Of a stretch of DNA of 64,000 nucleotides, positions 38,165 to 38,740 are shown piece by piece. Numbering within the stretch: position 1 is the stretch's first letter; every line of letters begins with the position of its first letter. This DNA is from Escherichia phage LF82-1: sequence record PV648359. One strand, 5' to 3'. Both the position numbers and the translations under genes were made by a program. Under the pieces are notes generated by a model. The model did no database searches, had not been told where the DNA came from, and worked only from the letters and a program-made list of their open reading frames with translations.

Positions 38165-38378
38165 AAGGAATTTCCTCATCGGTGACAAGGTCATATTCGA
38201 CCAATTGGATAGGCTCGTTAATACCATATCCACGTACAGTGATATCGGTTGTCGGATATTTTCCAGTAATATCACCCATTCTAAATGCTTCAGTGAATGA
38301 TTGCTCACCTGAGCAACTAAACCAGGCGGCAAAACATTTTAAAACATCTTCAGACCCTTCTATAATCAATTTAGCCAT
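38154..38378 (-). CDS. Hypothetical acidic protein (74 aa)
   Basis: ORF track. Confidence 0.45.
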   Translation of the reverse strand: MAKLIIEGSEDVLKCFAAWFSCSGEQSFTEAFRMGDITGKYPTTDITVRGYGINEPIQLVEYDLVTDEEIPYVD

Positions 38379-38740
38379 TATAGACTCTCAGTAAAGGTAC
38401 GAGCGATAACGTCGCGCTGCTGTTCCGGAGTCAGAGAGTTAAAGCGAACTGCATAACCGGATACACGAATGGTCAGCTGAGGATATTTTTCCGGATGCTT
38501 AACTGCATCTTCCAGAGTTTCACGACGCAGAACGTTAACGTTCAGGTGTTGACCACCTTCAATTTTAACTTTAGGTTGATGTTCAATTTCAATTTCACGG
38601 GCATGTAAACCGTAGAAAATTTCCGGGTCTACAATAGCGTCTTCTTTAAAAGTCTTAGAGACGATAATCCGGGCTTGAGTACCATCTTCAAAATAAATAG
38701 TGCCTTTATGTACACCTTCAAGAATTTGATATGCTTTCAT
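38378..38740 (-). CDS. Autonomous glycyl radical cofactor (GrcA/YfiD-like)
   Basis: 120 aa; C-terminal [55 protein letters not shown] matches GrcA by recall. Confidence 0.85.

Follow-up and report, generated by a model that had tools for sequence, protein, structure and literature searches.

[quoted passage not shown] Wagner et al. (2001; BBRC 285:456, from Knappe and co-workers), as recounted in PMC8683613, observed that both proteins receive a glycyl radical from PFL-AE, the activase of pyruvate formate-lyase (PFL), and that in vitro both reactivate PFL after its cleavage by oxygen at Gly734. YfiD and Y06I are the only validated PFL spare parts named in that account (PMC8683613). The C-terminal half of YfiD duplicates PFL residues 693-759; its residues 1-60 are disordered, yet they are needed for measurable binding to cPFL and for an approximately four-fold better radical installation (PMC8683613). 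The radical on GrcA G102 is handed to Cys419 of PFL (PMC12338860). PFL-AE accepts the peptide RVSGYAV and refuses the RNR loop RVCGYLG, its specificity tracking the loop sequence, and formate, for its part, is the hydrogen donor of the formate-dependent class III RNRs (PMC13450708).

The T4 protein is the product of vs.6 (NP_049730), a gene found in each of the six T4-like genomes that Nolan et al. compared (PMC1524935). We found homologues of vs.6 in about 1,500 phage records, which represent many genera of Straboviridae, T5-like phages and Aeromonas phages, and many of these are annotated as GrcA.

The window analyzed in this work is a stretch of 64,000 nucleotides from Escherichia phage LF82-1 (PV648359). 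A group of Escherichia phages isolated on strain LF82 match its DNA at 100%, and Mosigvirus such as HX01 match it at 98%, from which it follows that the window is part of a T4-like genome (Straboviridae, Tevenvirinae). The features discussed below are the following:

38378..38740, minus strand: vs.6/Y06I orthologue, a complete ATG-to-TAA ORF of 120 aa (from the ORF list and the sequence)
38561..38740, minus strand: phage-specific N-terminal half, codons 1-60 (from alignments and composition)
38378..38560, minus strand: structured glycyl-radical domain, codons 61-120 plus stop, the putative host-derived tract (from the codon table and alignments)
38441..38467, minus strand: glycyl radical loop RVSGYAVRF, residues 92-100 (from the sequence and alignments)
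38456-38458, minus strand: codon GGT of Gly95, equivalent to GrcA G102 and PFL G734
38745..38748, minus strand: GAGG Shine-Dalgarno sequence, 5 nt 5' of the ATG of the vs.6 homologue (read from the sequence)
20215-20685, minus strand: nrdG, activase of the anaerobic class III ribonucleotide reductase (Pfam Fer4_12, 1.1e-48, and Radical_SAM; LF82-2 annotation)
20682-22499, minus strand: nrdD, the anaerobic class III ribonucleotide reductase (Pfam NRDD, 1.5e-171; LF82-2 annotation)

The TGA stop of the vs.7 homologue overlaps the GAGG of the vs.6 homologue, whose own stop is overlapped by the ATG of the vs.5 homologue. The gene is thus a link in a tightly packed chain on the same strand. The order around it is denV, internal proteins, vs.8, vs.7, vs.6, vs.5, vs.4, vs.3, regB, vs.1, vs and tk.4 to tk, which is the gene order of T4 and of HX01. 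In a promoter and terminator scan of positions 37000-41200, promoter-like sites were not enriched (12 found, 12.1 expected from shuffles); the candidates include TTTACG-17-TATAAT at 40067-40039 (minus strand), which precedes the ipII homologue, and, upstream of vs.8, the weak site GTTTAC-N18-TAGTAT. The neighbors vs.5, vs.7, vs.8 and vs.3 have no Pfam match, and the vs.5 and vs.7 homologues fall into PHROG families of unknown function. Pfam and PHROG scans of the neighbors (vs.3 by Pfam only) found no PflA-like activase or other partner near the ORF.

A preliminary description of this DNA had called at 38378-38740 a 120-aa ORF carrying RVSGYAVRF and had assigned it to the GrcA/YfiD type. The ORF and its loop are confirmed, with the addition of the strand, and the assignment is borne out by several matches well beyond chance expectation. 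Pfam Gly_radical (2.1e-18) covers residues 60-101 only, which correspond to the last 42 positions of the model. The NCBIfam model for GrcA, TIGR04365, aligns residues 18-120 with model positions 23-126, and phrog_1209 aligns residues 1-120 with positions 1-121 (1.3e-62). The best solved structure is that of E. coli GrcA/YfiD (PDB 6owr, 1.9e-42), followed by the PFL C-terminus. A single-sequence AlphaFold2 model of the ORF had a mean pLDDT of 36 and a pTM of 0.31 and was uninformative. The loop glycine, whose absence on precise alignment had been named as what would refute the assignment, is conserved: Gly95 aligns with GrcA G102 (offset 7) and with PFL G734 (offset 639), and RVSGYAVRF is invariant across 13 of 13 aligned phage and bacterial homologues. 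The protein also has the general traits of the GrcA family, being a stand-alone polypeptide of about 14 kDa with an N-terminal region, a single C-terminal radical domain and no catalytic barrel. The proposed alignment to the E. coli and T4 proteins gave 64% amino acid identity to GrcA and 94% to T4 Vs.6, the latter over 120 of 120 residues.

The TIGR04365 score, 158.6 bits, lies below the equivalog cut-off of 170, which is an operational threshold for the bacterial equivalog and not a biological feature; the shortfall is explained by the divergence of the N-terminal half. On alignment, the ORF belongs to a divergent phage branch of the GrcA family, the Vs.6/Y06I group, and is not a bacterial equivalog. 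Full-length similarity and T-even synteny on one strand both place it in the vs.6 orthologous group, and by these measures it is the direct orthologue of T4 Vs.6, that is, of Y06I. The gene call is therefore correct and already known, as the preliminary description acknowledged when it called such proteins known for T4, where the product is annotated 'autonomous glycyl radical cofactor GrcA'.

Two other identities were considered and rejected. The ORF is not a full-length PflB or TdcE: only residues 55-120 align, with the last ~66 positions of TIGR01255, at 89.6 bits against a cut-off of 994. Since the similarity is confined to the PFL C-terminus, the label 'pyruvate formate-lyase' carried by several phage records is a misnomer. 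Nor is the domain of the NrdD type, given the loop RVSGYAV in the ORF and RRTCGYLG in the phage NrdD, and a BLASTP E value of 2.4 between the two. GenBank labels for vs.6 vary widely, from hypothetical protein, pyruvate formate-lyase and 2-ketobutyrate formate-lyase to acetyltransferase-like and ribonucleotide reductase subunit; in the exactly matching LF82 phage records the gene is given as hypothetical. Labels of neighboring genes vary as well, the vs.3 homologue of HX01 being called 'pyrimidine dimer DNA glycosylase' and the vs.7 and vs.8 homologues of JK36 'endoribonuclease'. One record, OR584013 ('Pseudomonas phage PsgM02F', host Pseudomonas coronafaciens), has a T4-type vs.6 with 94% amino acid identity to the ORF; its host label is unexpected, as the phage looks like a T-even coliphage.

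Compared with T4 Vs.6, the ORF has the same length of 120 aa and is likewise flanked by vs.7 and vs.5 within the denV-regB block. The two proteins differ at seven residues, six of them in the N-terminal half and the seventh at position 73 (R in the ORF, H in T4), and the genes at 20 of 177 nt in the N half versus 6 of 186 in the C half. E. coli GrcA (P68066; 6owr) is arranged in the same way, with the glycyl radical domain behind an N-terminal half, and has the same loop and radical glycine. In contrast, the N half of the ORF is seven residues shorter, AT-rich and of phage codon usage, and the gene sits in an early-gene block of a lytic phage instead of the chromosomal ung-grcA-eamB context. 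The radical domain of PflB (~693-759) and TdcE is the fold element that a spare part replaces, and it shares RVSGYAVRF and about 80% of 64 residues with the ORF; PflB, however, has 759 aa and a ten-stranded barrel with the catalytic Cys418/Cys419, of which the ORF has only the radical domain. At the DNA level, tdcE is only ~76% similar. The short proteins GrcA2 and GrcA3 (NF008341, NF038360; ~80 aa) match the radical domain of the ORF (residues 55-120); they lack the N-terminal half, and the ORF scores far under their cut-offs.

With regard to function, the biochemistry of the T4 orthologue, the loop specificity of PFL-AE and the presence of RVSGYAV in the ORF lead us to prefer the reading that this protein is a phage spare part for host PFL, a phage version of GrcA/YfiD. 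We regard this as likely, with considerable confidence, and it is the reading that the preliminary description had proposed. It is strengthened by the report, as relayed in PMC8683613, that Y06I restores oxygen-cleaved PFL; residues 61-120 of the ORF, moreover, are ~80% identical to PFL 700-759. In the proposed mechanism, host PFL holds its catalytic radical on Gly734, where traces of oxygen cleave the chain and inactivate the enzyme. [quoted passage not shown] The phage could in this way maintain the fermentative ATP supply during infection of micro-aerobic cells and would probably also keep formate available, which serves as reductant for the class III RNRs that depend on it, NrdD among them. 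We infer that the protein of this phage acts like its T4 counterpart, that it matters for the phage in vivo, and that formate and NrdD are connected.

Four observations count against the spare-part reading, namely the 29% identity of the N half to GrcA, the TIGR04365 score below cut-off, the frequency of promoter-like sites, which is no higher than in shuffled sequence, and the position of the homologue between nrdG and nrdC in some Aeromonas phages. The first of these bears on targeting: as the N half has diverged in the phage and that of YfiD is needed for cPFL binding, targeting or regulation could differ in the phage protein.

The last observation raises the question of whether the ORF could instead be a spare part or accessory of the phage's own NrdD, an O2-cleavable glycyl radical enzyme, activated by the phage NrdG and not serving PFL. 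Both nrdD and nrdG are indeed in the same genome, as had been noticed in the preliminary description. In Aeromonas phages Ah1 and phiWae14 the homologue directly follows them, in the order nrdD-nrdG-[vs.6]-nrdC-nrdH, inside an anaerobic/redoxin nucleotide-reduction cluster, a gene order that hints at a link of vs.6 to ribonucleotide reduction; a role in nucleotide metabolism was also proposed from a Pfam match by Nolan et al. (2006; PMC1524935). However, 16-18 kb separate the ORF from nrdDG in the window, the similarity to phage NrdD is not significant, and the two loops differ in the very stretch that activase specificity tracks. The domain of the ORF, furthermore, is 100% identical to that of host GrcA and ~80% identical to that of PFL, and according to PMC8683613 the T4 orthologue acts with PFL-AE and PFL in vitro. 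We therefore consider a role as a part for NrdD highly improbable. The distance from vs.6 to the nrdD-nrdG/nrdC-nrdH cluster is 10-18 kb in T-even coliphages. The broader idea of the preliminary description, that the phage invests in anaerobic metabolism through this gene together with nrdD and nrdG, is plausible, given that the formate consumed by formate-dependent class III RNRs is a product of PFL (PMC13450708), even though the genes are unlinked in this genome; the suggested fit with gut hosts is likewise conjectural.

It could also be imagined that the protein is a decoy or regulator, its host-identical domain vying with GrcA or PFL for access to PflA or to the active site of PFL; for example, owing to its phage-specific N half it might bind intact PFL constitutively, or redirect or throttle pyruvate flux. 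Only that half differs from the host protein, it is the half that governs recognition of damaged PFL in YfiD, and its conservation among T4-like genera indicates that it is under selection of its own. Nevertheless, the N half is still homologous to that of GrcA and keeps the motifs ARxIVxK, ED and RE..E..P.V, and the T4 orthologue, in the account of PMC8683613, restores PFL activity and does not inhibit it. A decoy thus appears improbable, and the spare-part reading is retained.

The two halves of the gene also have different histories, a feature absent from the preliminary description. Codons 61-120 plus stop differ from the E. coli K-12-type grcA at 6 of 183 nt, all synonymous (96-97% DNA identity), and the encoded residues are 100% identical to GrcA 68-127. 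Over the last 186 nt (codons 60-120 plus stop), 179 positions in the window and 181 in T4 (97%) match E. coli grcA. Codons 1-59, by comparison, are AT-rich and phage-specific, and encode a protein segment with only 29% identity to GrcA. GC3 is 0.22 in the N half versus 0.37 in the C half. Relative to E. coli, and among codons whose amino acid is shared by the two sequences, synonymous change affects 9/17 codons in the N half versus 6/60 in the C half (Fisher p = 4e-4). The breakpoint found by a maximum-chi-square scan is codon 60 (60/61), with none of 2000 permutations reaching the observed value, and it coincides with the point at which the disordered half gives way to the structured domain. 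T4 vs.6 is the same mosaic with the same breakpoint.

The similarity points specifically to Escherichia. Among 80 bacterial species, the phage 3' half matches Escherichia at 178-179 of 186 positions, Citrobacter amalonaticus at 166 and Salmonella at 153 (~82%); E. coli and Salmonella grcA themselves share 156 of 186 over the same stretch. The tract has 95-99% identity in all 5,426 complete E. coli genomes. Against these genomes, megablast of the 64-kb window returned a single match, 38370-38562, which is the 3' half of vs.6, and window positions 1-25000 and 39001-64000 gave none. T4 differs from the allele of E. coli SK1144 by 1 nt from codon 61 to 119, and the similarity ends at the stop codon. 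As judged from the sequences, then, the radical-domain half was recently copied from Escherichia grcA, and at the domain boundary it meets an N half that is older and specific to the phage.

Could the near-identity instead reflect old common ancestry under very strong constraint, with no recent transfer? The domain protein is extremely conserved in all bacteria and phages, and in Klebsiella phage 05F it is 100% identical to the Klebsiella type despite saturated synonymous sites. The synonymous sites of the T-even genes tell otherwise, as the following counts of synonymously changed codons in the C half illustrate:

Window versus E. coli: 6/60
T4 versus E. coli: 2/59
E. coli versus Salmonella: 25/58 (Fisher p = 5e-5 relative to window versus E. 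coli)
Other T4-like genera versus any bacterium: a fraction of 0.33-0.6

The C halves of the T-even genes are thus far closer to E. coli than Salmonella is. Other phage pairs are saturated to the same degree in both halves, and the C half is therefore under no general synonymous constraint. Constraint also accounts poorly for the jump in GC3 at the breakpoint and for the single nucleotide separating T4 from SK1144, and we consider it exceedingly improbable. Transfer in the opposite direction, from phage to E. coli, was rejected on the grounds that E. coli grcA is normally distant from its Citrobacter and Salmonella counterparts in both halves, and that the GC3 of the phage C half is host-like. 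Our literature search, which covered the key subscription papers incompletely, found no previous description of this DNA-level mosaic or host conversion, and an earlier mention is possible.

From these data we consider it very likely that at least one recent transfer of grcA from Escherichia to phage has occurred. Whether such transfers recur is a separate matter. The identity of phage records to the E. coli tract has a bimodal distribution: 628 records fall at 95-99%, 18 at 90-95%, 312 at 80-90% and 549 at 60-80%. Among the matches listed, those of the 95-99% class are Tequatrovirus or Mosigvirus isolated on Escherichia, Shigella or Yersinia. The GrcA genes of Jiaodavirus, Slopekvirus, Karamvirus, Pseudotevenvirus, Krischvirus, Aeromonas T4-like phages and T5-like Demerecviridae have the same two-part architecture and an invariant 12-letter protein stretch; unlike the T-even genes, they lack the recent Escherichia tract, their 3' halves having 70-89% DNA identity to any sampled bacterial grcA.

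When eight alleles of Tequatrovirus and Mosigvirus were compared, 16-23 differences separated the two genera in the N half and no fixed difference was found in codons 61-117, where the variants scatter around the E. coli sequence, nearly all of them as private synonymous singletons; in codons 118-120 the variants are shuffled from phage to phage. All C-half variants in these alleles are synonymous except one, R73H in T4. Between the window and T4, synonymous change is more frequent in the N half (12/53) than in the C half (4/59; p = 0.03), and the flanking DNA is only ~77% identical. The third position of phage codon 73 (codon 80, Arg, in E. coli grcA) is C or T on both sides: C in the K-12 type and T in SK1144, C in RB10 and T in the other phages. 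This could have arisen by chance or may reflect conversion from different host alleles.

The star-like pattern of alleles fits either repeated conversion by host DNA or a single capture that later spread between the genera. T4 readily recombines with short homologous cytosine-DNA, a property on which plasmid marker rescue and insertion/substitution rely, and this makes recurrent conversion mechanistically plausible. The alternative of a single capture would have to cross a genus boundary, on which RB69, a phage that we take to be a Mosigvirus, is informative. PMC6024577 describes RB69 as unable to recombine with T4 or other RB phages, which argues somewhat against spread between genera. On the other hand, all alleles have the same 5' tract boundary, and this counts against independent events. 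As far as these alleles allow a judgment, recurrent and independent host-to-phage conversions, which would keep the C half of vs.6 like host grcA while the N half is retained, are a possibility that we take seriously and lean slightly against. In the vs.6 of Tequatrovirus OES_C-2 (locus L094, 529-885), 6 nt are deleted in frame from the N half (EIEIE to EIE), and the C half, at 2 mismatches in 185 nt, comes closer to E. coli than any other observed.

Among 80 bacterial grcA loci (K. pneumoniae not included), none qualifies as a recent donor for Klebsiella phages pKp20 and 05F, whose DNA identity to these loci is at most 85-89%. Both phages carry the Klebsiella/Salmonella-type residues LLDAVEH, and their synonymous sites are saturated relative to every bacterial grcA compared. 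The 61 C-terminal residues of 05F (locus L086, 1201-1563) match the Klebsiella/Salmonella-type GrcA domain at 100%. Nucleotide identity between 05F and Citrobacter phage Miller (locus L088, 1201-1563) is 83% in the N half but only 77% in the C half, although the latter is the more constrained, a hint that here, too, the C half was replaced by DNA of a donor not sampled.

The gene call by itself adds nothing new, RefSeq already naming the phage orthologues GrcA; its practical value lies in annotation, since the records of the LF82 phages and many others label it a 'hypothetical protein' or mislabel it 'pyruvate formate-lyase'. The mosaic is of wider use, since it separates a host-identical catalytic and docking module from an N-terminal module evolved in the phage. 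Because the N-terminal region of YfiD decides when damaged PFL is recognized, chimeras of the phage and host proteins would be a ready tool for studying how spare parts are targeted. The putative host-derived tract, in turn, offers a natural case of recent gene conversion from a host to a virulent phage and could serve to gauge how often T-even phages copy host DNA. If conversion is recurrent, Tequatrovirus and Mosigvirus (~630 genomes) would carry an always-current host part fitting PflB and PflA, and the tract, only ~180 bp long, would represent a datable homologous flow of DNA from host to lytic phage.

Other genes of the block deserve mention. T4 Vs.4 is presumably already known as a sponge of the Acb2/Tad1 type, a family of cyclic-nucleotide sponges against CBASS/Thoeris defence; the vs.4 homologue of the window (37898-38164, minus strand), two genes 3' of vs.6, has a Pfam Acb2/Tad1 hairpin domain (4.4e-18). 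The vs.8 homologue (39052-39591, minus strand; 179 aa) contains a P-loop-like motif, GGRQSGKS, and has two weak PHROG matches, to the ATPase region of the terminase large subunit (phrog_2, 6e-5). T4 vs.8 is annotated as ~40 codons longer than this homologue, the start of which is overlapped in a different frame by a 36-aa ORF (39530-39640) with a strong GAGGGG Shine-Dalgarno sequence.
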